The position numbers were made by a program, and so were the translations under genes. From an uncultured Candidatus Saccharibacteria bacterium (GTDB taxonomy: Bacteria; Patescibacteriota; Minisyncoccia; Phycocordibacterales; PALSA-1337), in NCBI GenBank assembly GCA_964358005.1, contig CAYHNH010000002.1, positions 18,596-82,595 on the forward strand: a stretch of 64,000 nt of DNA, written 5' to 3'. Shown piece after piece: positions 16,882-62,700 of this stretch. The notes under the pieces are model-generated. The model saw only the letters and a program-made list of their open reading frames with translations, was not told the DNA's origin and ran no database searches. Each line of letters opens with the position of its first letter. Positions within the stretch are counted from its first letter, which is position 1.

Positions 16882-16941
16882 GCATTAGCCAGACAGTCCC
16901 GCCGGCCCTTTTTCTAGGAGCTTCATACATGGGGGGGCGAC

Positions 16942-16984
16942 TACCTATGCATTTTGGGACAGATTTTGTCTCAAAAGGCATAGG
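16942..16984 (+). repeat. 43-nt palindromic intergenic element, copy 2
   Basis: TACCTATGCATTTTGGGACAGATTTTGTCTCAAAAGGCATAGGTA lies 60 nt after the RND permease stop. Two further perfect hairpins follow at 17001..17020 and 17021..17042. Confidence 0.7.
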
Positions 16985-17089
16985 TACTTAAGATGAACTA
17001 CTTCTTTGTCATGAAAGAAGCCTATAACAAAGATGTTATAGGTCTCATGTACGAACAGGTGTGAGGGCCGCATGGGTAGCGCTTAGATA

Positions 17090-17140
17090 ACAATAAACCC
17101 GCCTCACGACAAAGCTTGGGGGCTTATTGTCGGGGCGGGC
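17090..17140 (-). terminator. rho-independent terminator for the 17157..17450 gene
   Basis: On the minus strand, the stem CCCGCC(tca)CGACAA...TTGTCG(g)GGCGGG is followed by TTTATTGTT. Confidence 0.5.
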
Positions 17141-17156
17141 AAAGCGGCGCATCAGA

Positions 17157-17450
17157 TCACTTGGTCGCTTTCTCCGATTTGGAGTCGGTCGTCTTCGGCG
17201 ACGGCAAGCCGTCATCGAAGACAATCCAGACACCATAGAACATGTTCTTGACCTCGCCGTCGTAGTAGACGTTGAAACTGACGAGCTTCAATGTCGGATG
17301 ATCATCGATCCACTTGTCGATGACCGTCGCGACGGTTTGGGGAGTTATGCGGGTGTTGTCCGCGAGACTGACAAACACTGTGCGTTGTTTGGCAAAGGCG
17401 ACTGAAGTCGCCGAAAGGAAAAGGCAAACCAGTAGGAGCATCTTTTTCAT
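17157..17450 (-). CDS. small secreted protein, hypothetical
   Basis: 97 aa with a signal peptide (MKKMLLLVCLFLSATSVAFA) and a terminator downstream. Confidence 0.5.
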   Translation of the reverse strand: MKKMLLLVCLFLSATSVAFAKQRTVFVSLADNTRITPQTVATVIDKWIDDHPTLKLVSFNVYYDGEVKNMFYGVWIVFDDGLPSPKTTDSKSEKATK

Positions 17451-17545
17451 AGGAAGGAATTGTCAAAGCTGTGGTGCATTCTAGCACGTTAATGTATATA
17501 TGTCAACCTCTGCTAAACGGCCCTGATTCCTGCTATCATTCATCC

Positions 17546-18493
17546 ATGAAGAAAATCCTCCTCTCCGGCGTGAAGCCATCCGGGCGGCCGCACATAGGCA
17601 ACTATTTCGGCGCCATGAAGCAATTCGTGGAACTGCTCGCCTCCGACAAATACGAGTGCTACTTTTTCATCCCCGACTATCACGCTCTCAACACCGTCCA
17701 GAACGCCGAGGAGATGAGACATAACTCCCTGGATGTGGCCATTGACTACATGGCGCTCGGGCTCGACCCCACCAAGGCCACGCTCTTCAAACAGTCAGAC
17801 GTGTCGGCACATACCGAGCTCGCTTGGATATTCGATACGCTAGTATCCGTCCCGTACCTACAGCGCGCTCACGCCTACAAAGACGCCGAAGCCAAGGGCA
17901 CCGAGATCAGCATGGGCACATTCAACTATCCCGTGCTCATGGCGGCCGACATACTCCTCTACGATACGGACGTCGTGCCAGTAGGCCAGGACCAGAAGCA
18001 ACACATAGAATACGCGCGCGACATCGCCGCCAAGTTTAACAACACCTTTGGCGAGACTTTCAAGCTGCCGGAGCCCTTCATTCTCGAGAATATGGCGACA
18101 GTTCCAGGTACTGATGGGCGCAAGATGTCCAAGAGCTACAACAACACGATACCGCTCTTCGCCACCCGCGAGGAGATAGTCAAGGCCGTCATGGGCATAG
18201 TCACTGATTCGGGTGCAGACGTGCCGACCAACGTATATGCCATGCACAAGCTGTTCCGACCAGAAGGGGATATAAAAGCGCTCTACGAGGCGAATAAGGG
18301 CAAATACAAGGCTTTAAAGGAGGCTTTGATAGAGGATATAGACGCCTTTCTGAAGCCTCTGCGCGAGCGCCGAGCCGAGATAGCCAAGAATGAAAAGCAG
18401 GTCATGATAGTGCTAGACAAGGGAGCCGAGAAGGCTCACGGCAAGGCTTCGGCCAAACTGCGCGACGTCAAAAAGAAGATAGGCGTATTGTAG
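17546..18493 (+). CDS. trpS: tryptophan--tRNA ligase
   Basis: Class I aaRS with the HIGH-type motif (GRPHIGNYFGA) and KMSKS. About 315 aa from the internal Met at 17546. A TATCAT hexamer lies 6 nt upstream. Confidence 0.85.
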   Translation: MKKILLSGVKPSGRPHIGNYFGAMKQFVELLASDKYECYFFIPDYHALNTVQNAEEMRHNSLDVAIDYMALGLDPTKATLFKQSDVSAHTELAWIFDTLVSVPYLQRAHAYKDAEAKGTEISMGTFNYPVLMAADILLYDTDVVPVGQDQKQHIEYARDIAAKFNNTFGETFKLPEPFILENMATVPGTDGRKMSKSYNNTIPLFATREEIVKAVMGIVTDSGADVPTNVYAMHKLFRPEGDIKALYEANKGKYKALKEALIEDIDAFLKPLRERRAEIAKNEKQVMIVLDKGAEKAHGKASAKLRDVKKKIGVL

Positions 18494-30436: not shown

Positions 30437-31705
30437 TCAGAATCTATAAACCCATATTTGACCGGATGGCGACGATCCATGGCTGTAAAAAAGCAATCTT
30501 ATCCGACTGTTATCCACAATGTAATGCATCCTATTATTCCTTAGCATTTTGAAAACATACCCGTCGATAACTATAAAGCCGTGACTATTCTCGATTATGC
30601 CTTTGAGCTGCTCTAGTGTGCGGATCGGATTGACCCCGCTATAAAAGTCGGCTTCCCTTTCTGACATGCTTTGTGCTGGGATCCAGAGACCATAACGGCC
30701 AAGGTAGAGGTTCGCGAGAGCTGGATGAATCGAGATGATCACGTCATCAGGCCGCATGATTTGATGTATGAGTCCGTAGGCACCGTTGTAATCTGGTTGG
30801 GGAGAAACTAGATTGATGGCATAGGCTTTTCTCGGTATGAAATTATAAAATGGTGCTACCACTGACACCAGGATGAGAAATGCAATCAACGATCTAACGC
30901 GCTTGGGAAGCCTATTGGCCAGCGTAAGATCTACTACCTTCATACACATGTAGACAGCAAGCACGGTCCATAGGGGTAGAAATGGAAATAGCACATATCT
31001 AGGAAGCATCACCCACATATCAAGAGCGAGCAATATCGAAATATAGCCAACAAGGATCACAAAAATTAGGTACGCCACTCTTTTTTTTGACTGAAGGATG
31101 AATGACCTAGGACGGTCATGTAGCATCAGAACAAATGCGGGGAGAAATGCCAACGCCACCCAATGAGAAAGCGCGGCCAGGATAAAGAATACCATCGTCA
31201 AAGCTAGGTCTGATCGTCGCCTACTTTCAAAATATTTCCAAAGGAAAAGAGTGGTAAGAACGATAAATACCGCCAGTGCCGCATATCCCCTAGCCTGACG
31301 TGACCATGCAATCTCATAGTAAAGAAATGCGACGATAAACGCGCTCGCAAGTGACACGTCTGCCCTACTAAACAGCGCACGTGCGAGAGCATATACGCAA
31401 TATATGAGCAACGTGCCAAACAAAACCCCAGGCAACCTGACTACCCATGGATTGAACGGGTCGAATCCAAAGATTTTTATAGTGAGAGCCGCCGCGTATA
31501 CGCTTACGAAGTTATTCGTATACAAGGATCCAGAGCCCATTAAGGGGTAGCCTCGGTCCAATACAGCATGAGCGGCATGCACTGTATATGCCTCATCGAG
31601 CCAGAGCGGCTGGCAACCTAGACAATAGGCTCTAAGAAAAAAACCCGACACTATCAAAGCGCCCAGTACAAGATATCGCCAGTGACTAGTGCAAAAATTC
31701 TTCAA
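30437..31705 (-). CDS. GT-C glycosyltransferase, family 39/83-like (PMT/ArnT-type)
   Basis: 422-aa polytopic membrane protein. The first loop carries the DE motif and an aromatic-rich segment (LWLDEAYTVHAAHAVLDRGYPL). Confidence 0.75.
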   Translation of the reverse strand: MKNFCTSHWRYLVLGALIVSGFFLRAYCLGCQPLWLDEAYTVHAAHAVLDRGYPLMGSGSLYTNNFVSVYAAALTIKIFGFDPFNPWVVRLPGVLFGTLLIYCVYALARALFSRADVSLASAFIVAFLYYEIAWSRQARGYAALAVFIVLTTLFLWKYFESRRRSDLALTMVFFILAALSHWVALAFLPAFVLMLHDRPRSFILQSKKRVAYLIFVILVGYISILLALDMWVMLPRYVLFPFLPLWTVLAVYMCMKVVDLTLANRLPKRVRSLIAFLILVSVVAPFYNFIPRKAYAINLVSPQPDYNGAYGLIHQIMRPDDVIISIHPALANLYLGRYGLWIPAQSMSEREADFYSGVNPIRTLEQLKGIIENSHGFIVIDGYVFKMLRNNRMHYIVDNSRIRLLFYSHGSSPSGQIWVYRF

Positions 31706-32205: not shown

Positions 32206-33468
32206 TTATATGCACTGGATGTCCCACGAATCGCATTCCGCGCCGCATGACATACTTGTTCCAGTAACCGTACACCCATCAAGAACATCTCCTATATACT
32301 CACCGTAGTCATTGTATGCTGGCGAATAAGTGCAATCCATCTTGCTGCACGAGCAACCGTCCCCAGAGCAATCCATGTCACCTTCGTCGCAAGAGCATGT
32401 TATCGTGTATGACACACAGACTTCTTGTTCTATACACCCACCACCCCCTCCTCCACCACCGGTCGGTGGTTCCGAAGGTGGTTCTGAAGGCGCCTCAGAT
32501 GGCGGCTCTGAAGGAGCTTCCGAGGGTGGTTCTGAAGGAGGAGTTGAAGGCGGCTCGGTTGGTGGTTCCGAGGGTGGATCAGAAGGAGGTGTCGAGGGTG
32601 GTTCCGACGGCGGTTCTGAAGGAGGAGTCGAAGGCGGCTCTGAAGGAGCTTCTGAGGGCGGTTCTGAAGGAGGAGTTGAAGGTGGCTCGGATGGTGGTAC
32701 CGAAGGAGGTTCAGATGGCGGCACACTTGGCTCTGGGGTAGGTGTAGATCCTCCACAAGCGGCCGTTCCATAGTCACTGCAACCAAGGTCACAATGATCG
32801 CCGCAGACAGTCGAACCGTCGCTACCAGTGGCTCCACACGAGGCATTTGCGCAAGGATTGGTGCATACAGGCAGCCCAGCCAATGGGCAACCGGCATCGC
32901 AAGAATCGCCGCAAGTCGTCACACCGTCGCTGCCGGTCTGGCCGCAACTCTTTCCGTCACAGACACCTACGCACGCCGCCGTTCCAGCATCTGGACACCC
33001 AGTATCGCAGTGGCTACCACAGGTGGTCGAGCCGTCAGTGCCAGTCTCGCCGCAATCATACCCGCTAGGACAGGCGCAAGCGGCGGTTCCGGCATCGGGA
33101 CAGCCTGTGTCGCAGCTGCTGCCGCAGGTCGTCACACCGTCCGACCCGGTATCTCCACAGGAGACACCGGTGCAGACATCCACTCCACAATTATTCAAGG
33201 AAACGTTCGGAGCACCGTTGTTCACAATAGAAAGCCACTCATTTTGGGTCTTTGTGCCTATGAAAAGGTTCTTGGAATTGGCATTGTCGACATCTCTACA
33301 GATGCTGTACTCGTCTATGGTCTCCACAGCCCCCGCTCCGACATCATACCAGTTGTAATTAGCCGCCAAGGCGGGTGTAATCTGAAATGAGAAAAATGAG
33401 AAAACAGCCACCGCAGCGAACGCGATCCTAAGAGCCTTGAATACTGATGTATATACGTTTCTCTTCAT
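32206..33468 (-). CDS. secreted cysteine-rich repeat protein with (PPSE)n low-complexity linker
   Basis: Signal peptide, then four roughly 40-aa Cys-rich modules (SCG.TGSDG.TTCG..CD.GCP.AG), then about 25 tandem PPSEPPS-type repeats, a Gly8 run, and a Cys-rich C-terminus. Confidence 0.8.
   Translation of the reverse strand: MKRNVYTSVFKALRIAFAAVAVFSFFSFQITPALAANYNWYDVGAGAVETIDEYSICRDVDNANSKNLFIGTKTQNEWLSIVNNGAPNVSLNNCGVDVCTGVSCGDTGSDGVTTCGSSCDTGCPDAGTAACACPSGYDCGETGTDGSTTCGSHCDTGCPDAGTAACVGVCDGKSCGQTGSDGVTTCGDSCDAGCPLAGLPVCTNPCANASCGATGSDGSTVCGDHCDLGCSDYGTAACGGSTPTPEPSVPPSEPPSVPPSEPPSTPPSEPPSEAPSEPPSTPPSEPPSEPPSTPPSDPPSEPPTEPPSTPPSEPPSEAPSEPPSEAPSEPPSEPPTGGGGGGGGCIEQEVCVSYTITCSCDEGDMDCSGDGCSCSKMDCTYSPAYNDYGEYIGDVLDGCTVTGTSMSCGAECDSWDIQCI
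32461..32735. repeat. 12-nt periodic tandem repeat (coding; PPSE-type peptide repeat)
   Basis: The unit ggtggttctgaa(ggn) is repeated about 23 times. This repeat produces the false ORFs in several alternative frames. Confidence 0.85.
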
Positions 33469-34595: not shown

Positions 34596-35999
34596 GTGGC
34601 CCCCCTATTTATCCTTATCACGAGCGCTGTCGCTCATTTTTGGAACTTCGGCTTCCCTGCTTCCATAGTCTTCGATGAGGTCTACTTCGGCCGTTTTGTG
34701 GCAGATTACTGGCACGGCACATACTTCTTCGACGTCCACCCACCACTCTCGAGACTGCTCATAGCTATATTCGGTAAACTCACAAGCATCGATCAGATAC
34801 CGACGGAGTGGCTCGCGGTCGGTGGAGATCTCTCGCCGGCCATGACCGCCCTGCGATTCCTACCCACACTAGCAGGAACTCTTCTGCCTGTCGTCATCTA
34901 CTTTATATGCAGGAATTTCAAATTCTCGAAAGTCTCGTCAGCGGTCGCAGCCCTGCTGATATGCTTCGAGAACTCGCTCCTAGTCCACTCGCGTTTCATA
35001 ATGCAGGAAAGCATGCTCATCTTATTCGGTTTTTTGGCGATACTCTTCTATCAGAAATATAAGATCGACGGCAAAAAGGGCTGGTTCGCCCTCTCCGCCG
35101 TGTTCATCGCATGCTCGATCTCCTCAAAATGGATCGGGCTTTCATATCTAGCGGTGATCATAGTCCTGGAGGCGTGGGATCAGATGCATAAACATGGAGT
35201 CGCTCATCGGATTAGGAGAAGCATAGTGGAGCTCATCAAGGTGGGATCGATCTACCTAGCTTTTATCGCAGTCATCTATAGCAGCTCGTTTGCGCTCCAC
35301 TTTGCCCTACTGCCCAAAACAGGCTCTGGCGACGGATTCATGACGCCAGGATTCCAGAAAACGCTCACTGGTAATAGATACGAGAATGATCAACTTCTAA
35401 GCACTCCAAATTTCTTCGAGAAGCTGATTGAGATCAATAAGCAGCTGTACCTGTCCCAGAAGAGCATCACCACAGCGCACCCTTCTGGTACAAAATGGTA
35501 CACATGGCCGATCATGCAGCGCGGCGTATACCTTTGGCATAACAATGACTGGTCTGCGCGTGAGGAAAAGAACGAGCTATACATCCTTGGCAACCCGCCT
35601 ATTTATTGGCTGGGTACGCTTTCTATAGTTTTTCTCATTATCTACACGATGTGGCTTGCGATAAGGCGCTTCAAAAAGCGCGCATGGGCTACTGTTGATC
35701 CAGACAAAAACAAGCTCCTGCTTTTCTTGCTATTCGGTTACTTGATGAATCTTCTTCCCTATTTGTTTATAGGCAGGACGCTCTTTCTCTACCATTATGA
35801 GACAGCTCTCGTATTCAGCATCATAGCCATTGCCGCAGTTTTGGAATATTTCTGTCCTACCGAGAAGCGGACCCGGGTTGCAATAGTCCTTGTTACGACA
35901 GCCTTCCTGATATTTTTATACTTCAGCCCGCTAACGTACGGGACTCCGATAACACCGAAGGAGCTTGATAAAAGAATGTGGTTGTCGACCTGGCGTTAG
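34596..35999 (+). CDS. dolichyl-phosphate-mannose--protein mannosyltransferase family (GT39, PMT-like)
   Basis: PMT signature DEVYFGRF...FFDVHPPL with multiple TM helices. It has a GTG start. A TATAAT at 34583-34588 lies 7 nt upstream. Confidence 0.8.
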   Translation: MAPLFILITSAVAHFWNFGFPASIVFDEVYFGRFVADYWHGTYFFDVHPPLSRLLIAIFGKLTSIDQIPTEWLAVGGDLSPAMTALRFLPTLAGTLLPVVIYFICRNFKFSKVSSAVAALLICFENSLLVHSRFIMQESMLILFGFLAILFYQKYKIDGKKGWFALSAVFIACSISSKWIGLSYLAVIIVLEAWDQMHKHGVAHRIRRSIVELIKVGSIYLAFIAVIYSSSFALHFALLPKTGSGDGFMTPGFQKTLTGNRYENDQLLSTPNFFEKLIEINKQLYLSQKSITTAHPSGTKWYTWPIMQRGVYLWHNNDWSAREEKNELYILGNPPIYWLGTLSIVFLIIYTMWLAIRRFKKRAWATVDPDKNKLLLFLLFGYLMNLLPYLFIGRTLFLYHYETALVFSIIAIAAVLEYFCPTEKRTRVAIVLVTTAFLIFLYFSPLTYGTPITPKELDKRMWLSTWR

Positions 36000-38169: not shown

Positions 38170-39663
38170 CTATACGTTTTGGAAAATCGATATGCTGGCA
38201 AAAAAGCAAATTGAGCAAAGGATGAATAAATAAATAACCGATACAAGCAAACCAGCGAAAAATCCACTGAATCTCGACCCCTTAGATCTAAGGTCAGCGA
38301 TTATATAAGCCAAAAGAGCTGAAACAGGGATGACTATCGGGTAAACGAAACGGAAATCTGAACTCGGAAAATAAGGGTAGAGATATCGTCCAACAACAGC
38401 TGACACAATCAAAAGCGCGATCGAGAATAGGGTGAGCACTCGCATAGGCGCATCGGATTGAATCGCAAAAAAATCCCTAGTGAATCCTTTTGCAATAAAC
38501 ATAAGCCCGACCACCATGGCCAACAGCATAAGAATAAGAAGGTAGCTCATCAGAATCGCCTGAAATGCAAACGTATTTCCATCAAAACGATACTCTCCAA
38601 AAAGAGAGCTCTTTAGGAAAACATTCAGGAAGTACTGCCGCCCAGTGGTATCGTGGCTTAGGTCCATGAATGGATACTGAACAAAAGACTGCAGGTCGAA
38701 ACTGATGAAATTTTTGATATCATTTGTCGTAAGTACATCAGTCATTAAAATTGCATTAGGATTCAACTCCGATCTAAAATCAAAAGCCTTGTTCCCATAA
38801 AACTTGCTATGTCTAAGACCTGCAAAACACAATAAGATCAATACCGCTGGCAACATTATCTTGCAGACATCGATCAGTATCTCTTTCTTGCTTTTGGCTA
38901 GGATGAGCTTAAGCAAAATCGCAATAATAATAACAGCGAGCAGCACGAGACCGGTACCCTTGGTAAGCAGAGAAGCGATCAGGAAAATAACTGACAATAG
39001 TAAGCTTTTCCATCGGGCGTCCTTGAACCATTTTGTGATGAAATAAGCTCCGCCAGCTATAAAAAAATATGATAAAGCGTCGTTATTTATTGTAACTGAG
39101 GTGATGATCCCCGCAGGCCAGAAGATGAGCAGCATCGCTGAAAGATTAAAATATATATCGTTTGTTCCCTCTGGGATAAACAAACGCAATAGCTTAATCC
39201 CAAAATATAGGAAACCGACACTAGCGAGAAGCGATAGCAGCTGTAAAATCAACAATCCTTCACCATCATTAGAACAAGAGCTGAAATAACATACAGGGCT
39301 CACACTCATGTAATATAAAGGCGGATGGAAACCTTCCCAGCAATCGTTAGCTGATGGGAGGGAGTGATTGCTTGATATGTAATTGATATTGCAGATATGG
39401 CCTTGCACATCGTGACCGCGTACAAATGGGGGCGTTTCGCTAAGATATGCAATACGCAGAAGCAAGCCCGCGAGAAGAATCAGCGTTACCAGGTAACTGC
39501 CGGCAATAGGTTTCTTCCTAGCTATGTATAGGAGAACAATAGCGCTAGTCAACGCCAGGATTATAGGAATGTATGGTGCTGCTACAAAATTAGCGCTGTG
39601 GAAAGAATTTACTAGGATCATCAGGAAAAGAACTATCAGTCCGATGAAAGCTAGATTTTTCAC
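38170..39663 (-). CDS. GT-C glycosyltransferase, PMT/ArnT-like (family 39/83)
   Basis: 497-aa polytopic membrane protein with a first-loop motif (RGHDVQGH...WEGFHPPLYY) resembling the PMT/ArnT DE-HPPL region. Confidence 0.65.
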   Translation of the reverse strand: MKNLAFIGLIVLFLMILVNSFHSANFVAAPYIPIILALTSAIVLLYIARKKPIAGSYLVTLILLAGLLLRIAYLSETPPFVRGHDVQGHICNINYISSNHSLPSANDCWEGFHPPLYYMSVSPVCYFSSCSNDGEGLLILQLLSLLASVGFLYFGIKLLRLFIPEGTNDIYFNLSAMLLIFWPAGIITSVTINNDALSYFFIAGGAYFITKWFKDARWKSLLLSVIFLIASLLTKGTGLVLLAVIIIAILLKLILAKSKKEILIDVCKIMLPAVLILLCFAGLRHSKFYGNKAFDFRSELNPNAILMTDVLTTNDIKNFISFDLQSFVQYPFMDLSHDTTGRQYFLNVFLKSSLFGEYRFDGNTFAFQAILMSYLLILMLLAMVVGLMFIAKGFTRDFFAIQSDAPMRVLTLFSIALLIVSAVVGRYLYPYFPSSDFRFVYPIVIPVSALLAYIIADLRSKGSRFSGFFAGLLVSVIYLFILCSICFFASISIFQNV

Positions 39664-39728
39664 ATGGATATTTTAACATACTCTATATCCAATTCAGAAA
39701 AAAAAGTGCTAAAGTACAAGCAAAAAAC

Positions 39729-40445
39729 ATGGCAACCCCTATGATGAAAATGTTAAGGATCGCCAGGGCGTCAGGGTCACCTGAATCATATTATAATTCC
39801 ATTGCTGGTTTATATGACCATGGAAAAAAGAAGAACCTCTATTATTTTGATAATCTAGTTAGTCTTTATAGATTTTTTATACCTACTGGAAGGAATATAT
39901 TGGAGATTGGCTGTGGGACTGGCGACCTTATAACTAAGCTCGATGCGCGCGAGGCGCTTGGGATAGATTTGAGCGCTGAAATGATAAAAACTGCGCAAAG
40001 AAAATATCATAACCTCAAAAAAATCAGATTCGAACGCATGGACATAACATCTTCCTCCGAATTATTTCGAACCGAGTACATAATGATAGTCGATGTGCTT
40101 GAACATGTGATCGATGTGCCTAAATTCATCAAGCAGGTTTATATACGCGCCCCAAGAGAAGCAAGGGTGATCATCTCAGTCGCAAATCCGATCTGGGAGC
40201 CATTTTTAATGCTAGCTGAAAAATTACGCATGAAGATCCCCGAAGGACCCCACAAACGCCTTACCATTAAGAAAACCGAGGAAATCTATGGCCAAGCTGG
40301 CTTTCTGATCGAGCAAAAAGGCTATAGACTCCTTGTACCAAAAAGACTTCCATTTTCGGATTGGATAAATGAGCGATTTTATAGGAGCAGACTGATGGGT
40401 CACCTAGGCCTAGTGGTATTCTGGGTTTTAGTGAAGCGAACCTAA
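39729..40445 (+). CDS. class I SAM-dependent methyltransferase
   Basis: Motif I (ILEIGCGTGDL) and post-I acidic residues; 238 aa. Confidence 0.75.
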   Translation: MATPMMKMLRIARASGSPESYYNSIAGLYDHGKKKNLYYFDNLVSLYRFFIPTGRNILEIGCGTGDLITKLDAREALGIDLSAEMIKTAQRKYHNLKKIRFERMDITSSSELFRTEYIMIVDVLEHVIDVPKFIKQVYIRAPREARVIISVANPIWEPFLMLAEKLRMKIPEGPHKRLTIKKTEEIYGQAGFLIEQKGYRLLVPKRLPFSDWINERFYRSRLMGHLGLVVFWVLVKRT

Positions 40446-53740: not shown

Positions 53741-53776
53741 CGAGGCGACTCCGTGTCGCCTCTTTTTATTTATTCA
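53741..53776 (+). terminator. rho-independent terminator
   Basis: GAGGCGAC tccgt GTCGCCTC TTTTTATTTATT. Confidence 0.6.
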
Positions 53777-54377
53777 GATACCTTCTGTCACGAAAATATC
53801 CAGGTTCGTATTTTGCATAATCAAAAATCGAGTTGGCCTCCCTGTTCAGAGTCTCGATATAGGCATAGAAGCCTTCGTCGGTGAATGTCTTGAGCTTGAG
53901 CTCTTCGCATAGTGCGAGTAGTTCGGCTTCGGCTTTGTGCGCATCAACTGCAGTGGCCAGTATCTCGGCCTCAAAATAGTAGCTGTGCCCAGGCACCTCT
54001 ACTAGGGCGAACTCCACATTCTTGTAATCATAAACAAGGCTGTTCCTGACGCAGAGAACGCCCTTCGTGTATCCAAGCTCACCAAAAGCCCTGACAAGAT
54101 CGTCGAAACTGCCCTTTTCTGTATGAATTGATATCTCCTCCCTTTTTTCAGAACCACCCCAGGCACCCAGCTTTATGATTATCTCCGGTATACCGTTAGT
54201 TTCCCTGACCCGTATGTCCTTCTTCCTATCCCTGACGCCAGAGGAAAAATCTATCAGGACGCGCTCCTTCTTCTGTTTGAAAATAGAGTTCTTTGAGAGA
54301 AAAGAGTTCAACACATCGAATTCATCCTTCGAGAGAAGTCCTCGCACCTCTGCTTCGATATTCTTTACATTTGTCAT
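53766..54377 (-). CDS. CYTH-like domain protein (putative triphosphate tunnel metalloenzyme)
   Basis: An N-terminal ExExR/K-like motif (NIEAEVRGLL) and overall size fit a CYTH domain. Start at the internal Met. The assignment is tentative. Confidence 0.35.
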   Translation of the reverse strand: MTNVKNIEAEVRGLLSKDEFDVLNSFLSKNSIFKQKKERVLIDFSSGVRDRKKDIRVRETNGIPEIIIKLGAWGGSEKREEISIHTEKGSFDDLVRAFGELGYTKGVLCVRNSLVYDYKNVEFALVEVPGHSYYFEAEILATAVDAHKAEAELLALCEELKLKTFTDEGFYAYIETLNREANSIFDYAKYEPGYFRDRRYLNK

Positions 54378-54381
54378 TGGT

Positions 54382-55401
54382 TTAGGCCGTAGCTTTTTGG
54401 ATAAGCTGCCGCACGCACATGGTAGCATAGCATCCGGCAGGTAGGAAAAATGCCAGCCTTAGCTTGCAGCACCCTTTATTGAGATCGTCATCCCCGACTT
54501 CGAGAACATATATGGCCGTAGTTATGATAGCACAGCGAGAGTTCTCCCTTCGGATAGGCTTCATGCCAGGACCTATCTTATACCCTTCATTAGAAAAAAT
54601 ATTCTTAGCCACAAAGACATTGCCACCTGGGACAAAGAGCTCTGCGACGTTCTCGAACTTATGATGCGCACCATTATTCGACTTCTGGAGATCTTCCGAC
54701 AGTGCGTGATTCCAATGATAGCTCTCATACGCCGAAACGAAAAAATCGACCTTCTTCGGGTTTAGGCCAGCGAATATCCCCTTAGGCTCGGCACTGGGTG
54801 GAATTGTCCCGATCTTGTTATTCGATCTCACTAGCTGGGTGTATGCCTCTTCCCAGTCTTCTTCGATTATAGCTTTGCCGATTAGGTGAGTGTTAAACGG
54901 CCCCCCAGGCATGCCGAACCGCTGGGAATCGTAATAATTTATAAAGCTTATGAACTTGTTATCCCTGCAATATTCGACGACGCTCTCCGCGGCATCTTTC
55001 TCCAGATCGCGCACGATGAGGTCGAAACAATTGCCATGAAGCATCTTGGGCTGGACTGGCTCGCGGCCGTAGCCAAGGATCCTCTCCAGAGAAATATATG
55101 ATTTCTCACCAGAGTGACTTCCATTGAAAGCATCTAAGTCAGACTGGACGAGAGCCTTACGCATCGAAATGATCTGGGAGGTTATACCATCCTCATCTTT
55201 GAGCCCTTCCGCAGACACATCTTCGTATTCAAGCTCGAAAAATATCTTGAGAAATTCCTGGGCGTCGAATGTAGTATATCCGCTCTTCTTGAGCCAAATA
55301 TAGGTGAATGGGCCTTCTCCACGAAAGCGAGGGAGGAGCGGGACCTCGGTGACTTCAAAGTCATCATTCCTAACCTTCAACATGTAATTCGTGGAAGCCA
55401 T
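54382..55401 (-). CDS. truD: tRNA pseudouridine synthase TruD/Pus7 family
   Basis: Conserved N-terminal block (DFEVTEVP...GEGPFTYIWLKKSGYTTFDAQEFL...DVSAEGLKDEDG) and the NYYDSQRFG motif (canonical form NYFGxQRFG). The first ~158 aa of the track ORF are non-protein-like, so the start is set at the internal Met. Confidence 0.7.
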   Translation of the reverse strand: MASTNYMLKVRNDDFEVTEVPLLPRFRGEGPFTYIWLKKSGYTTFDAQEFLKIFFELEYEDVSAEGLKDEDGITSQIISMRKALVQSDLDAFNGSHSGEKSYISLERILGYGREPVQPKMLHGNCFDLIVRDLEKDAAESVVEYCRDNKFISFINYYDSQRFGMPGGPFNTHLIGKAIIEEDWEEAYTQLVRSNNKIGTIPPSAEPKGIFAGLNPKKVDFFVSAYESYHWNHALSEDLQKSNNGAHHKFENVAELFVPGGNVFVAKNIFSNEGYKIGPGMKPIRRENSRCAIITTAIYVLEVGDDDLNKGCCKLRLAFFLPAGCYATMCVRQLIQKATA

Positions 55402-55537: not shown

Positions 55538-56125
55538 ATGCATCCCACATTTACCTTTGACGCCGACGCATTCGCGCGCGTCCAAAGGATCCTTAGCCTG
55601 AGATCAGACGACATCGCGCACATGCTAGCGACTGACAGATGCCTAGTGATCGGCAGAACCGGGCTGGGCAACATCCAGATCCTCTTCTGGAGCCAAGACG
55701 ACCGGAAATTCTTCGTTGCCGAGGTGATCGAGCTCGAAAGACGCGTAATCTCGATCGAGCTACTGACCCGGAACCATCCCAAGGTGGAGGAGGATGACCT
55801 CCTAGCCATGATCAGCCAAAGCTCTCGTGAATCAGCCTGCAAGAGACAGCGGCGGGAGAGGAGACAGCCGACCAATCCCCAAAACTACATCTTCACTTTT
55901 TCGCTCGGTCGGCCGGGCGCGGTGCCGCGGATAAAAAGGGTGAAGATACCTGTCAGCGATTTTCCGAGCTATGTTAGGGACCCGACCGGTCTCGAACGCG
56001 AGCGCGCTTTGATCGAGCGCCTCCAGTTCCTGATCGCGCAGGAGATCCAGCCGGGAGAGAATCTCCTCGGCATCAGAGTGAGCTCTGGTCAAAATGCTTG
56101 GCGGTTGCCCTTCAATCTGCCCTAG
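55538..56125 (+). CDS. hypothetical protein
   Basis: ORF divergent from truD and followed by a terminator. No recognised domain. Confidence 0.35.
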   Translation: MHPTFTFDADAFARVQRILSLRSDDIAHMLATDRCLVIGRTGLGNIQILFWSQDDRKFFVAEVIELERRVISIELLTRNHPKVEEDDLLAMISQSSRESACKRQRRERRQPTNPQNYIFTFSLGRPGAVPRIKRVKIPVSDFPSYVRDPTGLERERALIERLQFLIAQEIQPGENLLGIRVSSGQNAWRLPFNLP

Positions 56126-56130
56126 TTACA

Positions 56131-56162
56131 CAACCGGCGGCTTTGCCTCCGGTTTTATTGTT
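56131..56162 (+). terminator. rho-independent terminator
   Basis: AACCGGCGG ctttg CCTCCGGTT TTATTGTT. Confidence 0.5.
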
Positions 56163-56178
56163 CACGGAAATAACCACT

Positions 56179-57792
56179 CTACGCTTTCCTAAATGGCTCC
56201 AATTCCACCACGAATGTCGAGCCCTTGCCTTCTCCGGCTGATTCCGCCCTTATGGTGCCATGATGTGCCTCCACCATCTGCTTGGCCACGAACAGTCCGA
56301 GTCCGGTGCCCTTGATGTTGACCTTGTTGGCATTGTTGGCTCGCGAGAATTTCTGGAAGAGATGCGGCAATATCTCCGGATCTATGCCTATGCCAGTGTC
56401 CTTGATCTCAAATATGATGACCTGCCTCTTGTGATCGAATGACAGAGTAACTGCAACCGAGCCGGAAGGCGTGTATTTCACCGAATTATCTACGAGGTTG
56501 GCTATGACCTGCTTCAGCTTGTCGCGGTCAGCGGTTATGCGGTAATCGGTACCGTTGTTCTCGGCAGCGAAACTGAAGTTCAAGCCCTTACCCTCAATGT
56601 TCGGCTTGAGCTCGGCTATGACGTCCTCGACCATGAGTTTGAGGTCAATGGTCTCGAATGTATATTTCATCGTTCCGAGCTCTATCCTGCTGATATTAAG
56701 GTAGTCGTTAACTATACTGACCAGTGTGTTCGTAGAATCAAATATGCGCTCTATGCCCTCCTTGGCCGCCGGCGGCAGTTCTCCCATGTCGCCTTCGAGC
56801 AATAGAGAGCCGTAACCCTTCATGGCCGTAAGCGGCGCGCGCAGCTGATGCGTAGCGAACGACACGAACTCTGACTTCTGCCTATCCAGCTCCGTGAGGC
56901 GCGTATTGGCCTTCTCCAGATCATCTGCCAGCTTTTGGATGCGTTCGCGTTGTTCAATCTCGTTAAACACATTCTTTACCAACCAAATTCCAAATATAAC
57001 AGTCAAAACAAGGATAACTCCACCAATAATTGCATCCTCAAAACTCTGTGCAAGTACAACCCTAAATAGTAAGGTTATCCAGATCGTTGCTGTCAGCAAT
57101 TGAGCTGTTATAACCCTAATATCAAACAGCTTATATTTTAAAATCGCATAGGCAATAATGAGTGGATAAAATGCAAATAATATCACTGGAAACGGTGGAA
57201 TCAGTACATTGAAGGTCAGAAGGAAAACACTACTACCACCTATAAATCCAGCTACCGATGAAAAAAGGATGTACTTAAGTCTGTGACCTTCCTCTTTTGA
57301 AACCTTCTTTATCTTTAATGATAGTAATATCAACGCAAAAATTACCGTCGCAAAAAAGTAAACAGTAAATGCAACATACAGCGGCCCTGCATTTGGTACA
57401 TAGGGCAAAGTTCCCTTAGAGAATACATCGGTAACAAATAATACAGAAGGCGTAACGGATGCAAAATATATAGCTATTATTCCAAAAACAAATAAAAAGG
57501 GCTTATATTTTTTTAATTCTTCAATAACAGTAATTATAAAAAACAAATAAAAAAATGGAATAAATGATGCACCGATATGTAAAATAATATCGCTTAAAAC
57601 TGCGGCTTCTTTACTTGAGGCTATTAGCATACTGTAATAACCAAAACTCCATATGCCTGTTGATATAGAGAGCAAAAGCCAAATTATGCTTTTAAGTTGC
57701 TTCGAGTTACTTAAAAAAACCAACAATCCAGAACCGAGAGCAACTAAACCACCTATAAAAAGAGACAAGCTATAGTATGTAAAGAAAAACAT
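56179..57792 (-). CDS. sensor histidine kinase with N-terminal 7TM receptor domain (orphan)
   Basis: 7 TM helices, a coiled-coil linker, a HisKA H-box (SFATHQLRAPL), and HATPase_c N/G1/G2 boxes. Confidence 0.85.
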   Translation of the reverse strand: MFFFTYYSLSLFIGGLVALGSGLLVFLSNSKQLKSIIWLLLSISTGIWSFGYYSMLIASSKEAAVLSDIILHIGASFIPFFYLFFIITVIEELKKYKPFLFVFGIIAIYFASVTPSVLFVTDVFSKGTLPYVPNAGPLYVAFTVYFFATVIFALILLSLKIKKVSKEEGHRLKYILFSSVAGFIGGSSVFLLTFNVLIPPFPVILFAFYPLIIAYAILKYKLFDIRVITAQLLTATIWITLLFRVVLAQSFEDAIIGGVILVLTVIFGIWLVKNVFNEIEQRERIQKLADDLEKANTRLTELDRQKSEFVSFATHQLRAPLTAMKGYGSLLLEGDMGELPPAAKEGIERIFDSTNTLVSIVNDYLNISRIELGTMKYTFETIDLKLMVEDVIAELKPNIEGKGLNFSFAAENNGTDYRITADRDKLKQVIANLVDNSVKYTPSGSVAVTLSFDHKRQVIIFEIKDTGIGIDPEILPHLFQKFSRANNANKVNIKGTGLGLFVAKQMVEAHHGTIRAESAGEGKGSTFVVELEPFRKA

Positions 57793-57815
57793 GTTCTGTG
57801 GATTGATTATAACAT

Positions 57816-59471
57816 CTATTTCATCATTCCTTGATATAGGTATTTGTTGCCCAATTCAGATGCATTTGGTGTAGATATTAGAAATTCAGCAAGATCCTCT
57901 ATTGAGGAAAAAACTATGTTTGTCCCATGATGAGGCTCAATATGTACATCACCCATATACAAGGATTTGGATTTTAATGCATTTTCAAATACGTCCATTT
58001 TACCGGCTAATGCATATATTGAGGATTGAATGGTAGAACAAGCTACGTGTGGATTATCATATCCATGTACATAAAAACCCTCCGGAATAAGATTATGTTG
58101 AATATATCCATGCCAATGGACAAGAGCAACCCCATTTTTTGCCATACGGTTAGAAAATTCTTGTTGGATTCCAGTAGACTTCTCTATACGATTAAGAACT
58201 GACGAAATGATTGCATTACCAACGGCATGAGCGAGAATTACTCTGGTGTCAAACGAGGGACGATAGTCTCTCCTAATACGACAGCCTATTGGAGTCCTTA
58301 AATACATTTTCCCATTCACAAGACCCATGAGAAAAATGTCGCGATGGGGATCTATTTTTGTTTTATCCGAACCAGACCTTTGTGTTAAAACCCAGACATC
58401 AGGTACTTTTAAAAAAAACCTGCCCAGCGGCAATTCCATGATTAAGTAAAGCTCGTCGTTCTTAATGAAATAATCCTGACCAAGTTTAATAGAATGTTTA
58501 GAAATATCCTCGTCAGAAAGAGGTACTAATCCTACAGGGACCGATGGAAGCTGCCTGGCGAGAAATCCATAACTCATACCGCTCCTGTGATCTAAATGAA
58601 GCTTTCCAATCCACTTATAAAAACCAGACCTAAATGGCAAATCTTCAACTTTTTTACCAGGCGGGTACAAATTAGTTTTATTAAACTTTTCTCCCCCGGT
58701 AACGAAATCTTTTAGAAGAGTTTTATATGGGTCTGAATCTACATCAAAAGATTCTGGCTCTACTATGAAATCCTTAAGGTAAGGTGGTCTAATTGGAGCA
58801 GCTACCTTTGGTATAAGTGCCTTTAAAATATTTCCCTTAAAATTTTTATGTAAGGGATACACCGGGTGTGAAGCATTGAAATTATAAATTATAAACTTAT
58901 CCGCAGAGACAAGTATCGCAATTTGTGTCATATGATAAGAAAAAATATTCATCGCGGCATCAAAGTGCGTAGAGAAGTTGCTTGTTTCATCTATGCCTGC
59001 AGGACATTTTAATACAGTAATTATTGTGTTCTGCGTAAAACTAGATGTGTAATCCATAGGCAACTGAGAGGATCTATTCTCACCCAAAGCAACAACTGTT
59101 ATTCCTTTTCTTATTCGCATTCTTTTAAAAAGGTTTAAAAAAGCTCCAGCGTGAATATTATGATAGGAATGGTCTTTGTTGATCATCTCTAAAACCGTAT
59201 ATAAAAAATTATTTGCGCAAATCTTTAGGAATCTTTTTAAAATTGTTGCAATAGAAATTTTCTCGAGAGATTTTTCATATGGAACTATCCTAACTCCTAG
59301 CTCTAGAAGTGCAGCCTCGAGCAAATCTTTAAAAATCAAGGTCTCCCTACTACAACTTTCAGAACTATATGGAAAAAAAGTAAAAACTAGTTTTTTGGCC
59401 ATCTGCTCAGGCTGAAGATCAGTAGAGGTTTCGATGCCCAGAATTCGCTCTATCGCTAATTTACTTAACAT
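57816..59471 (-). CDS. hypothetical 551-aa cytoplasmic protein, AT-rich, co-operonic with histidine kinase
   Basis: No TM helix or signal peptide, and no recognised motif. It lies 23 nt upstream of the histidine-kinase gene on the same strand. Confidence 0.6.
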   Translation of the reverse strand: MLSKLAIERILGIETSTDLQPEQMAKKLVFTFFPYSSESCSRETLIFKDLLEAALLELGVRIVPYEKSLEKISIATILKRFLKICANNFLYTVLEMINKDHSYHNIHAGAFLNLFKRMRIRKGITVVALGENRSSQLPMDYTSSFTQNTIITVLKCPAGIDETSNFSTHFDAAMNIFSYHMTQIAILVSADKFIIYNFNASHPVYPLHKNFKGNILKALIPKVAAPIRPPYLKDFIVEPESFDVDSDPYKTLLKDFVTGGEKFNKTNLYPPGKKVEDLPFRSGFYKWIGKLHLDHRSGMSYGFLARQLPSVPVGLVPLSDEDISKHSIKLGQDYFIKNDELYLIMELPLGRFFLKVPDVWVLTQRSGSDKTKIDPHRDIFLMGLVNGKMYLRTPIGCRIRRDYRPSFDTRVILAHAVGNAIISSVLNRIEKSTGIQQEFSNRMAKNGVALVHWHGYIQHNLIPEGFYVHGYDNPHVACSTIQSSIYALAGKMDVFENALKSKSLYMGDVHIEPHHGTNIVFSSIEDLAEFLISTPNASELGNKYLYQGMMK

Positions 59472-59545
59472 TTAATTGGGTTAAACCAGGGTAGTGGATA
59501 TACGAGTATTATTGTATCATAGGAATTTGACCACTACTTATAGTT

Positions 59546-61255
59546 ATGACAATCACAATATATTCAATATTAAACTGGATAACAGGGCTGATTCTTATTT
59601 CGGTAGCCTTTGCCATATATTTTCCAAGTGATAAATCACTTTCCGCAAGACTTTGTTCATTACTTTCGCTGGTAACAGGAGTATGGAGCTTGTTTATAGC
59701 TTTATCAGTTTCCGCAAATGACCTTTTTGTTGGGCTTATATTGCTAAAATCATGTCACTTTCTTGGAACACTAATTGCATCAGTTTTTATATTATTTTCA
59801 CTATCATATCCTAGTACAAAAAAAATAAAACCCGGAATAATCGCTGCATTTGCCATTGCTGAATTTATATTTGTATATCTAATCTTTTTCACTGACACAA
59901 TAATTCTAAATTCTCTGCTTTTACCGAATTTAGAATACTTTGCCTGGGAGTATGGCTCATTGCAGATATTTTTTGATATTTACTTTATTTTTTGTTGGAT
60001 AATTGGAATATTTGTACTTTATAACAAATTAAAGAGCTGTAGGGACGTAGAAATTACCAAAAATCTACAACTCATGCTAATTGCATTCATAATAAGTATT
60101 ACACCACCAACCTTTCTTACAATACTTTTACCGCAACTCGGAATTTTTGATTATTATTGGCTAAGCCCACTCTCCTGCTTATTTTGGATTATTGTTATCT
60201 CATACTCAATAACACGACATCATCTATTTAGGATAAAGGTTGTTGCCGCACAATTGATTACCTTTGTTCTCTGGATATTTATCCTCATCAGGATATTACT
60301 GGCAACCAATCCAAAGGAAATCATTATTGAGGGCACACTTCTTGGAATTACAATTATATCTGGAGTGTTTCTCGTAAAAGCAGTATTAAAGGAAACAAGA
60401 CAAAGAGAGAAAATTGAGCAATTGGCAAACAAATTACAGGATGCCTACAGGATAACTAGTGACCTCAACCACACCCTCGAAGCCAAGGTTGCGGCGCAGA
60501 CAGTGGAGATACGCAAGGCTTACGAGGCCGAGAAGCACGCTCGCCTGGAGCTGGAGAAGCTCAACGATGCCAAGGACCAGTTCATAATGATAACCCAGCA
60601 TCATTTGAGGACTCCGGTCACAAGCATGCTCTGGGCCATAGAATCGTCGCTCCAGGGAGCCTACGGGAAGATGGGCGCGGCGCTTCGGTCCGTTCTCGAA
60701 GATGCCCAGACATCCGGAAAGCGTCTGATGAAGATAGTCGATGATTTCTTGAACATAACTGCCATAAAGATCGGCACTAACATCTTGAATATATCCAAAG
60801 TCAGTCTGAAACCGGCCATGGATGACATTCTGCTGGAATTGAAGGGCAGCATAGACAAAATGAGGCTCATGGTTTCGTTCCCTGCTGATGGTAATAGCTG
60901 GCCAGAACTGCCGGTAGATTACGACAAGATGCGCGAGAGTCTCTTCATAATCATGGAGAATGCCGTGAGATACAACGAGGAAGGCGGCTCTGTGAAGATA
61001 GCAACGTCCAGGCAGGAGGATCGATTCGTGATATCGGTGGAGAATACCGGTCTCGGCATATCCGGCGAGGAGTCGACAAGGATAGGCAACGCTCTGTTCT
61101 ACAGAGGTGACTATGCCAGGAAGGCCTACCCCATTGGCATGGGAATCGGGCTGTCTGTCGTAAAGGCGATCATCAGGGCCCATCATGGGACTTTCAGCAT
61201 CACCTCCGAGGGCAAAGGTAAGGGTGCCAAAGCGTCGGTCTCCCTTCCCATATGA
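59546..61255 (+). CDS. sensor histidine kinase with N-terminal 7TM receptor domain (orphan; paralog of 56179..57792)
   Basis: Same architecture as the 56179..57792 kinase: 7 TM helices, an H-box (ITQHHLRTPV), and HATPase_c. The two linker regions align (KYKLFDIRVITAQLL vs RHHLFRIKVVAAQLI). Confidence 0.85.
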   Translation: MTITIYSILNWITGLILISVAFAIYFPSDKSLSARLCSLLSLVTGVWSLFIALSVSANDLFVGLILLKSCHFLGTLIASVFILFSLSYPSTKKIKPGIIAAFAIAEFIFVYLIFFTDTIILNSLLLPNLEYFAWEYGSLQIFFDIYFIFCWIIGIFVLYNKLKSCRDVEITKNLQLMLIAFIISITPPTFLTILLPQLGIFDYYWLSPLSCLFWIIVISYSITRHHLFRIKVVAAQLITFVLWIFILIRILLATNPKEIIIEGTLLGITIISGVFLVKAVLKETRQREKIEQLANKLQDAYRITSDLNHTLEAKVAAQTVEIRKAYEAEKHARLELEKLNDAKDQFIMITQHHLRTPVTSMLWAIESSLQGAYGKMGAALRSVLEDAQTSGKRLMKIVDDFLNITAIKIGTNILNISKVSLKPAMDDILLELKGSIDKMRLMVSFPADGNSWPELPVDYDKMRESLFIIMENAVRYNEEGGSVKIATSRQEDRFVISVENTGLGISGEESTRIGNALFYRGDYARKAYPIGMGIGLSVVKAIIRAHHGTFSITSEGKGKGAKASVSLPI

Positions 61256-61794
61256 TATACGCCTATTTGACCGCGATTGCCGCGCTTTCGGTCATCCTGC
61301 TTTTTGTGATCATCCCACGAATCATAAGGACTTCGAAGAAAAAGGCACCCTTTGTTCGAACACGCAACGGAGCAGTGCCTGAGATCCTGAAACTGCTCCA
61401 GTTGAATGATGGAAGCGTGCTATACGACCTCGGATGCGGCGACGGCAGAATCCTTCGGGCGGCGGTAGCCTCGACAAAAGGGCTGACAGGGGTCGGCATT
61501 GAGAATGATTGGTTGCCGATCATATTCTCACATTTTAGACCCAAACTGGCAGGAACAGAGATCATCAAAGGAGACATCTTCAAGACTCCGCTCGACAAGG
61601 CGACCCATATCTACTGCTACCTCTTCCCACAGGTCATGATCAATCTTGAGCCAGTTGTACTAGCCAAATGCCGTCCAGGCACAAGGATAGTCTCATGCGA
61701 CTTCCCTTTTCCCAATCTGACGCCGGTACAGACTGTCACGTTGCCAGGCAATAGATACATGCTAGCCAGGACTTTATACCTATACGTGCTCTAA
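61252..61794 (+). CDS. small membrane-anchored class I SAM-dependent methyltransferase
   Basis: N-terminal TM helix and motif I (LYDLGCGDGRIL). It overlaps the kinase stop (ATGA). Confidence 0.65.
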   Translation: MIYAYLTAIAALSVILLFVIIPRIIRTSKKKAPFVRTRNGAVPEILKLLQLNDGSVLYDLGCGDGRILRAAVASTKGLTGVGIENDWLPIIFSHFRPKLAGTEIIKGDIFKTPLDKATHIYCYLFPQVMINLEPVVLAKCRPGTRIVSCDFPFPNLTPVQTVTLPGNRYMLARTLYLYVL

Positions 61795-61926
61795 AATACG
61801 CGATAATACGCCCAAGAATGGCCGCGAATAAAATCTTCATTAAAATTTGAACTTTTCTTCATCGTTCCTTGAACCTTGTTGTTGTAGGATGGTGTTCGAT
61901 GATTTCATCACTGACGACAATCGGTA

Positions 61927-62700
61927 TCACGTTACTGGCGTTATCGGCGCTTTCCATTGGTATTTTGGCTGTTTTAGCGTACGGGATCTACTGGTCTCAC
62001 AAGGGGAAGTAGGAGCCGGCAAAGCGCGGATCCTGTCCATGACATAGTTGGCCTGAGCTTTGAAATCCTCAGCCGTCGGGACGACCGAGCTTTTGGCTAT
62101 GCCCCATACAGGCTCACCGAACGAGACTGACAGCTTGCAACGACCAAGGAATAGATCCGCGGGCGTAAGACCAAAAGTGCCACCAATGCGGACAGGTACT
62201 ATCGGCCTGCCGGTCGCGTATGAGAGATATGCCACGCCGCCCTTACCCTGTTGAATCGTGCCATCTGGAGTCGCTCGGCCTTCCGGGAAGATGCACAAGC
62301 TGCCCCCCTCGCGAAGTATGAGCTCGTGAGGAGCGAGCGACTTGGCATAGTCATGCAGGCCGACTTTGACCGCGTAAGCGCCCCAGATATTGAAGAAGGC
62401 TCCGCCATAGAAGCGCTGTCTCCAGCCGGCGCGCCTGTAGAACGCCTGTTCTCGCGAGGTATAGAAGATAGGCGAGAAGCGCGAGAAAAACGGCAGGCAT
62501 CCAGGCACCATGAATACATCCATCTCGCTCGAATGATTGCAGGCGAATATGGCATTGTGAGGGACTTTCTTGAGATTCTCTCTGCCCTTCATCTCCACGT
62601 GGCCGAATAGGACAAGGAGCAGGCGTGTCGGGACCCAGATGATCTGCTGGAGGAGCCACGGACTCACGAAATACCAGAGCTTGACCGATTTCATTTCCAA
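61927..62700 (-). CDS. plsC: 1-acyl-sn-glycerol-3-phosphate acyltransferase
   Basis: HX4D motif (CNHSSEMD) and the FPEGRATP block. Confidence 0.8.
   Translation of the reverse strand: MEMKSVKLWYFVSPWLLQQIIWVPTRLLLVLFGHVEMKGRENLKKVPHNAIFACNHSSEMDVFMVPGCLPFFSRFSPIFYTSREQAFYRRAGWRQRFYGGAFFNIWGAYAVKVGLHDYAKSLAPHELILREGGSLCIFPEGRATPDGTIQQGKGGVAYLSYATGRPIVPVRIGGTFGLTPADLFLGRCKLSVSFGEPVWGIAKSSVVPTAEDFKAQANYVMDRIRALPAPTSPCETSRSRTLKQPKYQWKAPITPVT

Follow-up and report, generated by a model that had tools for sequence, protein, structure and literature searches.

In the 64-kb window, the whole stretch of Patescibacteria DNA analysed here, the gene of an unannotated 551-aa protein (57816-59471, minus strand), here called X, lies between the genes of two seven-transmembrane (7TM) histidine kinases, HK1 and HK2. 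The results showed that this locus is one case of a set conserved in Patescibacteria (Parcubacteria/Paceibacteria), in which a PlsC/LPLAT-type acyltransferase is followed by X and X by a kinase of the HisKA_7TM family. A total of 85 loci around X family members were fetched and analysed. In 58 of the 59 Patescibacteria loci with enough flank, the next gene downstream of X, in the same orientation, encodes a HisKA_7TM kinase, and in the single exception a 7TM kinase was found 1 kb further downstream. The median gap between the X stop and the kinase start was 3 nt; in 61 of 62 loci the gap did not exceed 21 nt, and 10 loci had overlapping genes. X and the kinase are predicted to be co-transcribed and often translationally coupled. 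Of 53 loci, 26 had a PF01553 acyltransferase gene immediately 5' of X, and others had one close by. The remainder of the surroundings varied from genome to genome. In locus L003, a diversity-generating retroelement signature (bAvd accessory protein and RVT_1 reverse transcriptase) was observed at 15980-17647, about 6 kb downstream of the module.

The order in the window (acyltransferase, divergent HK2, X, HK1) was seen again in L001, and a divergent upstream kinase was also present in L041, L047, L052, L054, L055, and L059. The H-box "IMITQH[HQS]" was common to HK2 of the window and 6 of these 7 upstream kinases (L001, L041, L052, L054, L055, and L059). Because they share this H-box, HK2 is best taken as an old paralog subfamily, with members in at least seven other lineages, and not as a recent duplicate. 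An earlier reading of the window from its letters alone (the sequence-only reading) had described X and HK1 as adjacent in the same orientation, and HK2 as overlapping a small membrane-anchored methyltransferase through ATGA. Direct reading of the sequence confirmed both junctions. The methyltransferase (Table 1) gave weak MetW/Methyltransf_25 matches in Pfam and 64.6 bits against an archaeal protein-lysine methyltransferase model, under the cut-off of 200. Of about 80 loci, only 2-3 had a homolog of it; the methyltransferase is therefore a lineage-specific accessory that does not belong to the conserved module. The acyltransferase of the window belongs to PF01553 and carries the HX4D motif. 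An equivalog-level assignment to PlsC failed (TIGR00530, 42 bits against a cut-off of 103), and the match to the Aas acyltransferase domain was also weak and below the cut-off.

Table 1. Features of the X locus in the window
Feature	Position	Strand	Details
HK1, HisKA_7TM histidine kinase, ortholog of the X-following kinase in nearly all Patescibacteria	56179..57792	-	537 aa
Low-GC3 block (HK1 7TM half, X, intergenic region, HK2 7TM half)	56986..60436	.	change-points
Spacer from X stop to HK1 start, 23 nt, operon junction	57793..57815	-	read directly
X C-terminal half, about residues 301-551, class II aldolase/adducin-fold domain	57816..58571	-	
X N-terminal half, about residues 1-300, alpha/beta domain, motif YNFNASHP	58572..59471	-	
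Divergent X-HK2 intergenic region, 74 nt, centre of the AT-rich block	59472..59545	.	ORF (open reading frame) coordinates
HK2, HisKA_7TM histidine kinase, old "IMITQH" paralog subfamily, divergent from X	59546..61255	+	569 aa
Small class I S-adenosylmethionine (SAM) methyltransferase, N-terminal transmembrane (TM) anchor	61252..61794	+	180 aa; DLGCGDG motif I; one predicted TM segment
LPLAT/PlsC-superfamily acyltransferase	61927..62700	-	257 aa; PF01553 58.2 bits; HX4D motif HSSEMD at residue 56

X family, its neighbours and predicted structure

X had no Pfam, NCBIfam or PDB-sequence match, and neither X nor its family profile found anything among the PDB chain sequences. It has zero predicted TM segments. 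The description of X as a soluble protein with no recognisable motif was therefore upheld. In a search of 5.8 billion proteins, 380 homologs were found at E≤0.001 among 8000 scored candidates. The 120 best of these 380 shared 45-61% identity with X over 97-100% of the query, one identical copy apart. Among these 120, all named proteins were "hypothetical", and the named sources were Paceibacterota, Yonath-, Taylor- and Giovannonibacteria and other Patescibacteria. The identical X protein (P0001) was found on independent ENA contigs. More distant members, at 32-39% identity, come from Thermoplasmata archaea, Ignavibacteriota/Bacteroidota, Binatia, and further lineages. When 1.84 billion cluster representatives were searched exhaustively with the family profile, only 219 clusters were found, 110 of them at E≤1e-30, and none of the 219 formed a bridge from the X family to an annotated family. 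X is not an orphan; by these searches it belongs to a compact, wholly unannotated family. Literature searches on the X family, the kinase sensor domain, and lipid modules of Patescibacteria (candidate phyla radiation, CPR) returned no description of the X-kinase module.

The AlphaFold model of X (53 sequences) had a predicted local distance difference test score (pLDDT) of 91.5 and a predicted template-modelling score (pTM) of 0.91. The C-terminal half showed the characteristic fold of class II aldolases in this model, and the best structural matches were FucA, RhaD, AraD, MtnB, and OtnC. The N-terminal alpha/beta half had no close structural relative and holds the most conserved motif of the family. 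Residues D408, H452, H454, D508, H510, E512, and H515 of the C-terminal half are invariant in the family, and this Asp/His/Glu cluster looks like a metal site. Neither X nor its distant homologs matched PF00596 in sequence, even with E values of up to 1 admitted. X represents a new family of a known fold. It shares the fold of its C-terminal half with the class II aldolase/adducin superfamily (FucA, RhaD, AraD, MtnB, OtnC/YgbL, and pyruvic oxime dioxygenase). Unlike these proteins, it has no sequence-model match (identity is 10-18%), carries an extra conserved N-terminal domain of 300 aa, and occurs in acyl/lipid rather than sugar gene contexts.

Outside CPR, the gene contexts of X were different. 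The Binatia-type operon contains a divergent FadL/TodX gene, X, a 7TM-GAF kinase, a protein combining receiver (REC), AAA+ and HisKA domains, and an NtrC-type response regulator, after which some operons also have a REC-kinase. The REC-AAA+-HisKA protein, with a sigma-54-type AAA+ domain and without HATPase_c (L079, 8374-10230; L086, 11975-13810; L087, 11845-13701), is encoded after the 7TM-GAF kinase and before the NtrC-type regulator, and could be a phosphorelay intermediate. In L067, an AMP-binding (acyl-activating) enzyme is encoded directly 5' of X and a 7TM-GAF kinase. The record of L067 (CAYXZR010000002.1) reads "uncultured Gammaproteobacteria", yet its 39% GC and low-GC3 X-7TM kinase arrangement are like those of CPR; either the taxonomic label or the binning of this contig may be wrong. 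In Ignavibacteriota-type genomes there is no kinase by X, and a short-chain dehydrogenase/reductase (SDR) gene overlaps X by 4 nt. X without a kinase was also found in Thermoplasmata genomes and in biosynthetic clusters. Because X exists without kinases in all three settings, it has a function of its own. In the Thermoplasmata locus L062, a sulfotransferase-family gene was observed directly upstream of X.

Three distant full-length X relatives (P0321, P0327, and P0337) carry an N-terminal TubC_N docking domain (PF18563). One of them ends a Pfa-type synthase cluster, directly after a stand-alone acyl carrier protein (ACP) and beside an SDR; another directly follows an AMP-binding enzyme. A fourth distant relative, without a docking domain, is followed by a fatty-acid desaturase. 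The relatives with a docking domain resemble the trans-acting enzymes of polyketide synthase, non-ribosomal peptide synthetase, and Pfa-type systems that dock through TubC_N. In contrast, X of the window lacks a docking domain and is not part of a biosynthetic cluster, and the relatives are distant (140-180 bits against the CPR profile). The Pfa-type cluster, similar to polyunsaturated fatty acid synthases (L090, 1-12739, and L091), consists of KS-AT-ACP, KR-DH, KS-CLF, PfaD, and a stand-alone ACP, with the TubC_N-X fusion last and the SDR beside it. This cluster could reveal the chemistry of the X family. The X-adjacent SDRs of three contexts scored about 92-122 bits to each other versus about 46-72 bits to other SDRs of the same loci. 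Overall, acyl/lipid genes stood by X family members in at least six independent contexts, and sugar-metabolism neighbours in none of the contexts examined. Because such neighbours recur across contexts, the X family is repeatedly tied to fatty-acyl/lipid enzymes.

The two kinases and their signalling output

Both kinases are members of HisKA_7TM (PF16927) by score and by their seven TM helices: HK1 and HK2 matched the family with 54.7 and 40.8 bits (Pfam cut-off 28.6), PF00512 (HisKA) with 52.3 and 32.2 bits, and PF02518 (HATPase_c) with 101.5 and 61.4 bits, respectively. They are paralogs, as first proposed, with 30% identity over the full length (E=2e-60), and their best-matching stretch consists of the last TM helix and the linker. 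The boxes of HK1 are canonical (N box LVDNSVKY, G1 box DTGIG, and G2 box GTGLGL). The G1 box of HK2 is NTGLG instead of DxGxG, with Asn for Asp at residue 500 (window ~61043-61045). This Asn is common to HK2 and its orthologs in L001 and L041, whereas other HK2-type kinases retain Asp. Because of this replacement, ATP binding in the HK2/L001/L041 clade may be weakened.

The canonical HisKA motif is H-E/D-x-x-T/N, with an acidic residue directly after the phospho-accepting His. Neither kinase of the window has this acidic residue. The H-box of HK1 is H-Q-L-R-A-P (residues 315-320, window ~56833-56850, minus strand), and that of HK2 is IMITQHHLRTP, in which the phospho-accepting His is followed by a second His (H-H-L-R-T-P). 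Among the X-linked kinases (HK1 and 58 orthologs in L001-L075), the phospho-acceptor His was kept in 59 of 59. Gln stood at His+1 in 53 of 59 in place of the canonical Glu/Asp, and Gly, Ala, Thr or Ser at His+4. The X-linked kinases of CPR have neither an extracytoplasmic nor a cytoplasmic sensor domain, and those outside CPR add GAF domains. No ligand of the HisKA_7TM sensor domain is known in the literature searched (PMC5847659). The X-linked kinases are members of a known family with a non-canonical H-box. They share the HisKA and HATPase_c domains and the conserved His with other HisKA_7TM kinases, and are unlike them in the Gln after the His, in having no adjacent response regulator in CPR, and in the position of the gene behind X in an operon. 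They offer a natural case of a HisKA H-box without the catalytic acidic residue.

Receivers were searched for in six-frame ORFs of at least 60 aa, with four receivers as phmmer queries and then with an iterated receiver hidden Markov model (HMM). The four-query scan was too insensitive (L051 at E=3e-4 versus 4e-15 with Pfam), and the iterated HMM was used instead. This HMM finds receivers elsewhere and found none in the 64-kb window, in agreement with the sequence-only reading. In L051, a stand-alone receiver follows the kinase. X itself showed no Response_reg profile match and no phospho-acceptor Asp, and its fold similarity to receivers is only generic. The sole receiver-like Asp of the X family, D155, is present in at least 90% of members and is Lys in X of the window. 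In the Binatia-type operons, X stands ahead of a complete phosphorelay and does not take the place of the regulator. Because canonical receivers follow the X-kinase pair there, X is probably no replacement for a response regulator. The sequence-only reading had proposed an uncharacterised signalling module in which X or the methyltransferase partners a kinase in place of a response regulator. The uncharacterised module and the conserved X-kinase partnership stand; the methyltransferase (2-3 loci) is no partner, and no sign was found that X substitutes for a response regulator.

Base composition across the module

The AT-rich segment noted earlier at about 56950-60430 was recovered by maximum-likelihood change-points (Table 1). 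GC in 1-kb steps was 0.33-0.38 in the block versus about 0.52 around it, and GC at third codon positions (GC3) was 0.30 in X versus 0.58-0.75 in most genes of the window. GC3 was 0.27-0.30 in the HK1 7TM half, X and the HK2 7TM half, and 0.67-0.68 in the catalytic halves. The change-points fell at the 7TM/linker junction of each gene, after codon 269 of HK1 and codon 297 of HK2. A generic codon effect of membrane proteins was ruled out, since the TM windows of all other genes had a GC3 of 0.61 versus 0.62 outside. The block edges showed no inverted or direct repeats beyond chance-level matches of 15-26 nt and no tRNA, and no integrase was found among the neighbouring ORFs. Since no inverted repeat exceeded these chance-level matches, an invertible segment between the two divergent genes, or a shufflon that swaps their domains, was ruled out.

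The same pattern was found in other lineages. In 52 loci, GC3 minus the local background had a mean of −0.078 in X (negative in 44 of 52) and −0.075 in the 7TM half (47 of 52), and the kinase catalytic half was not below the background (+0.035). Catalytic-half GC3 exceeded 7TM-half GC3 in 48 of 52 loci (p=2e-9). A significant GC3 change-point was present in 17 kinases of other lineages, with a median HK1 coordinate of 279. L001, L029, L043, L020, L047, and others show the same GC3 mosaic. At fourfold-degenerate sites, the identity between the window and L001 was near that expected from composition alone, i.e., these sites are saturated, and the mosaic is kept in both. X family members outside CPR had GC3 at or above the local background. 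In the Thermoplasmata loci L056, L058, and L062, X had a GC3 of 0.81-0.94 versus a local background of 0.67-0.68, opposite to the CPR pattern. In Mantel comparisons, X distances correlated with 7TM-region distances (r=0.66) and acyltransferase distances (r=0.68), but poorly with those of the kinase catalytic half (r=0.27). Over 58 loci, the catalytic half correlated poorly with X, the 7TM region and the acyltransferase, at r=0.27-0.44, versus 0.66-0.68 for these three among themselves. Part of the history of the catalytic half may thus be its own, e.g., through gene conversion or domain exchange among kinases.

The AT-rich composition had been taken as consistent with horizontal origin. We consider a recent foreign island, or a homologous replacement from an AT-rich relative, very improbable and largely refuted. 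Such an event could explain the very large deviation of GC3 from a background of about 0.65, and most Patescibacteria are AT-rich and thus possible donors. However, both edges are intragenic at the same domain junction, without repeats, integrase or tRNA, and the module holds the same syntenic position across the phylum. Among the matches listed, the closest relative of X is only 61% identical. The genomic-island tests found atypical composition; they found neither gene-respecting boundaries nor mobility genes, tRNA or repeats, and neither absence from the syntenic position nor incongruence. An assembly chimera, with two populations joined where the kinase sequence is conserved, would fit a window that is probably from a metagenome-assembled genome, with break points near the most conserved part of the kinases. 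It is hardly credible, because the identical X protein lies on independent contigs, independently assembled genomes of different studies show the same mosaic, and both reading frames are intact and full-length across the junctions. The recurrence of the mosaic, its survival at saturated synonymous sites, and the co-divergence of X with an acyltransferase of native composition argue against island, replacement and chimera alike, and the claim of horizontal origin is not supported. The data point to a low-GC3 composition that is a maintained property of the module in CPR, for which selection or a local mutation or recombination regime may be responsible. For work on base-composition evolution, a compositional boundary that is kept within a gene is unusual. 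A second, milder low-GC patch was observed at window 38170-40445 (GC 0.41-0.42, GC3 0.44-0.45), spanning a PMT_2-like membrane glycosyltransferase and a divergent SAM methyltransferase.

Function of the module and other features of the window

CPR bacteria have tiny genomes without fatty-acid synthesis, and those of the Paceibacteria type are thought to depend on scavenged lipids. For the question of how CPR bacteria obtain, remodel and monitor membrane lipids, the X-kinase module is a concrete candidate. In it, an unannotated enzyme family is bound to a membrane sensor kinase and usually also to an acyltransferase of the lysophospholipid type, and the family has independent associations with lipid genes in other phyla. 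We tentatively favour, at somewhat less than an even chance, the reading that X is a lipid-related enzyme coupled to a membrane-ligand sensor kinase that signals to a distal regulator. X would be a cytosolic two-domain enzyme acting on an acyl- or lipid-linked substrate. The GPCR-like (G-protein-coupled receptor) seven-helix bundle of the kinase would sense a membrane-embedded hydrophobic ligand tied to the chemistry of X, and the kinase would use its conserved His to signal to a response regulator whose gene lies at another locus. HK2, the old paralog, sits divergently between the acyltransferase and X, and the lineage-specific methyltransferase follows it. The logic is similar to that of DesK-DesR-Des, the membrane-fluidity system of Bacillus subtilis, in which DesK senses the membrane. 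There too, genes of lipid-modifying enzymes are linked to that of a polytopic membrane kinase with no extracellular domain, and one distant X relative lies beside a fatty-acid desaturase. The likeness is in logic only: DesK is a HisKA_3 kinase with five TM segments and an adjacent regulator, DesR, that system has no X homolog, and the module described here is known from sequence alone.

Several points weigh against this lipid reading. The lipid link is one of guilt by association, and most known enzymes with the class II aldolase fold have small sugar phosphates or similar molecules, not lipids, as substrates. An hhalign comparison of X with E. coli FucA was not significant (probability 0.14) and did not show residue-level equivalence to the FucA zinc ligands. 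The 7TM region of HK1 formed a GPCR-like bundle in a predicted model of only moderate confidence (pLDDT 72, 7 sequences), and this similarity is generic. Because Gln replaces Glu/Asp beside the phospho-accepting His, normal autophosphorylation of the X-linked kinases is not assured, and both their autokinase and phosphatase chemistry may depart from the standard. A receiver was nearby in only 2 of about 60 CPR loci (L051 and L052), and no sigma-54 promoter was found before X or FadL in the Binatia-type loci.

Some of these observations can also be read in another way. In the main rival reading, X may be the direct partner of the kinase and form a complex with it, either as its cytoplasmic sensor or regulator or as a non-canonical phospho-acceptor, so that the CPR pair works without a classical response regulator. 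This is the idea of the sequence-only reading at its strongest. The near-obligate, translationally coupled pairing, the tight co-divergence of X with the 7TM region, the rarity of receivers near the CPR loci and their absence from the window, and the non-canonical H-box favour this view, as do the CPR kinases without a cytoplasmic sensor domain, where their counterparts elsewhere add GAF. Soluble enzyme-fold proteins encoded with a kinase and possibly modulating it are represented by KipI/KipA with KinA and by PII with NtrB; they have no homology to X, X also occurs without kinases, and its interaction with the kinase is only putative. We regard this partnership as somewhat unlikely, because X has no receiver sequence signal and only a generic fold similarity to receivers, the candidate Asp155 is Lys in the window, X lives without kinases in Ignavibacteriota-type and Thermoplasmata genomes and biosynthetic clusters, and canonical receivers follow the pair in Binatia-type operons. 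An ordinary sugar-phosphate-type enzyme of the class II aldolase family, with no lipid link and a regulatory or incidental kinase neighbour that would control the expression of a catabolic enzyme, is improbable. The best structural matches of X are of this type, and kinases are often encoded beside the genes they regulate. However, X lacks PF00596 sequence membership and has the extra conserved 300-aa domain, and its family is accompanied by acyl/lipid genes and not by sugar-metabolism genes. Beyond the lipid reading favoured above, a bolder form of it appears rather unlikely to us. In this form, X and the HisKA_7TM kinase would be a previously unrecognised lipid-sensing/processing unit, near-universal in Paceibacteria-type CPR. 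X would be a new metalloenzyme for acyl-carrier or lipid substrates that physically gates the GPCR-like kinase. The low-GC3 stretch, with its end at the same junction within the gene in many lineages, would be held by selection, e.g., on how X is translated or assembled together with the nascent 7TM domain, and not by ancestry.

Scans for sigma-70-like promoters and terminators at 55900-62000 gave nothing above the shuffled expectation, and Rfam gave no match and no RNA gene over the whole window. Among the PADLOC defence models, X and the acyltransferase were unmatched, and the kinases and the methyltransferase had only generic domain matches. Two genes from HK1, at window 53766-54428 (minus strand), a 220-aa protein showed a weak match to CyaB/CYTH-type proteins (class IV adenylate cyclase), at 29.7 bits and below the cut-off. 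Three paralogs of PMT/PMT_2-family (dolichyl-phosphate-mannose-type) membrane glycosyltransferases lie within 10 kb at 30437-31705, 34596-35999, and 38170-39663. A 420-aa ORF at 32206-33468 (minus strand), without a Pfam match, has an unusual GC at second codon positions of 0.64 and a GC3 of 0.48, and several long ORFs of other frames overlap it; a low-complexity protein or an erroneous frame call is the probable explanation. An AcrB/AcrD/AcrF-family transporter of the resistance-nodulation-division type (1139 aa; PF00873, 586 bits) is encoded at 13462-16881 in this apparent Patescibacteria genome.

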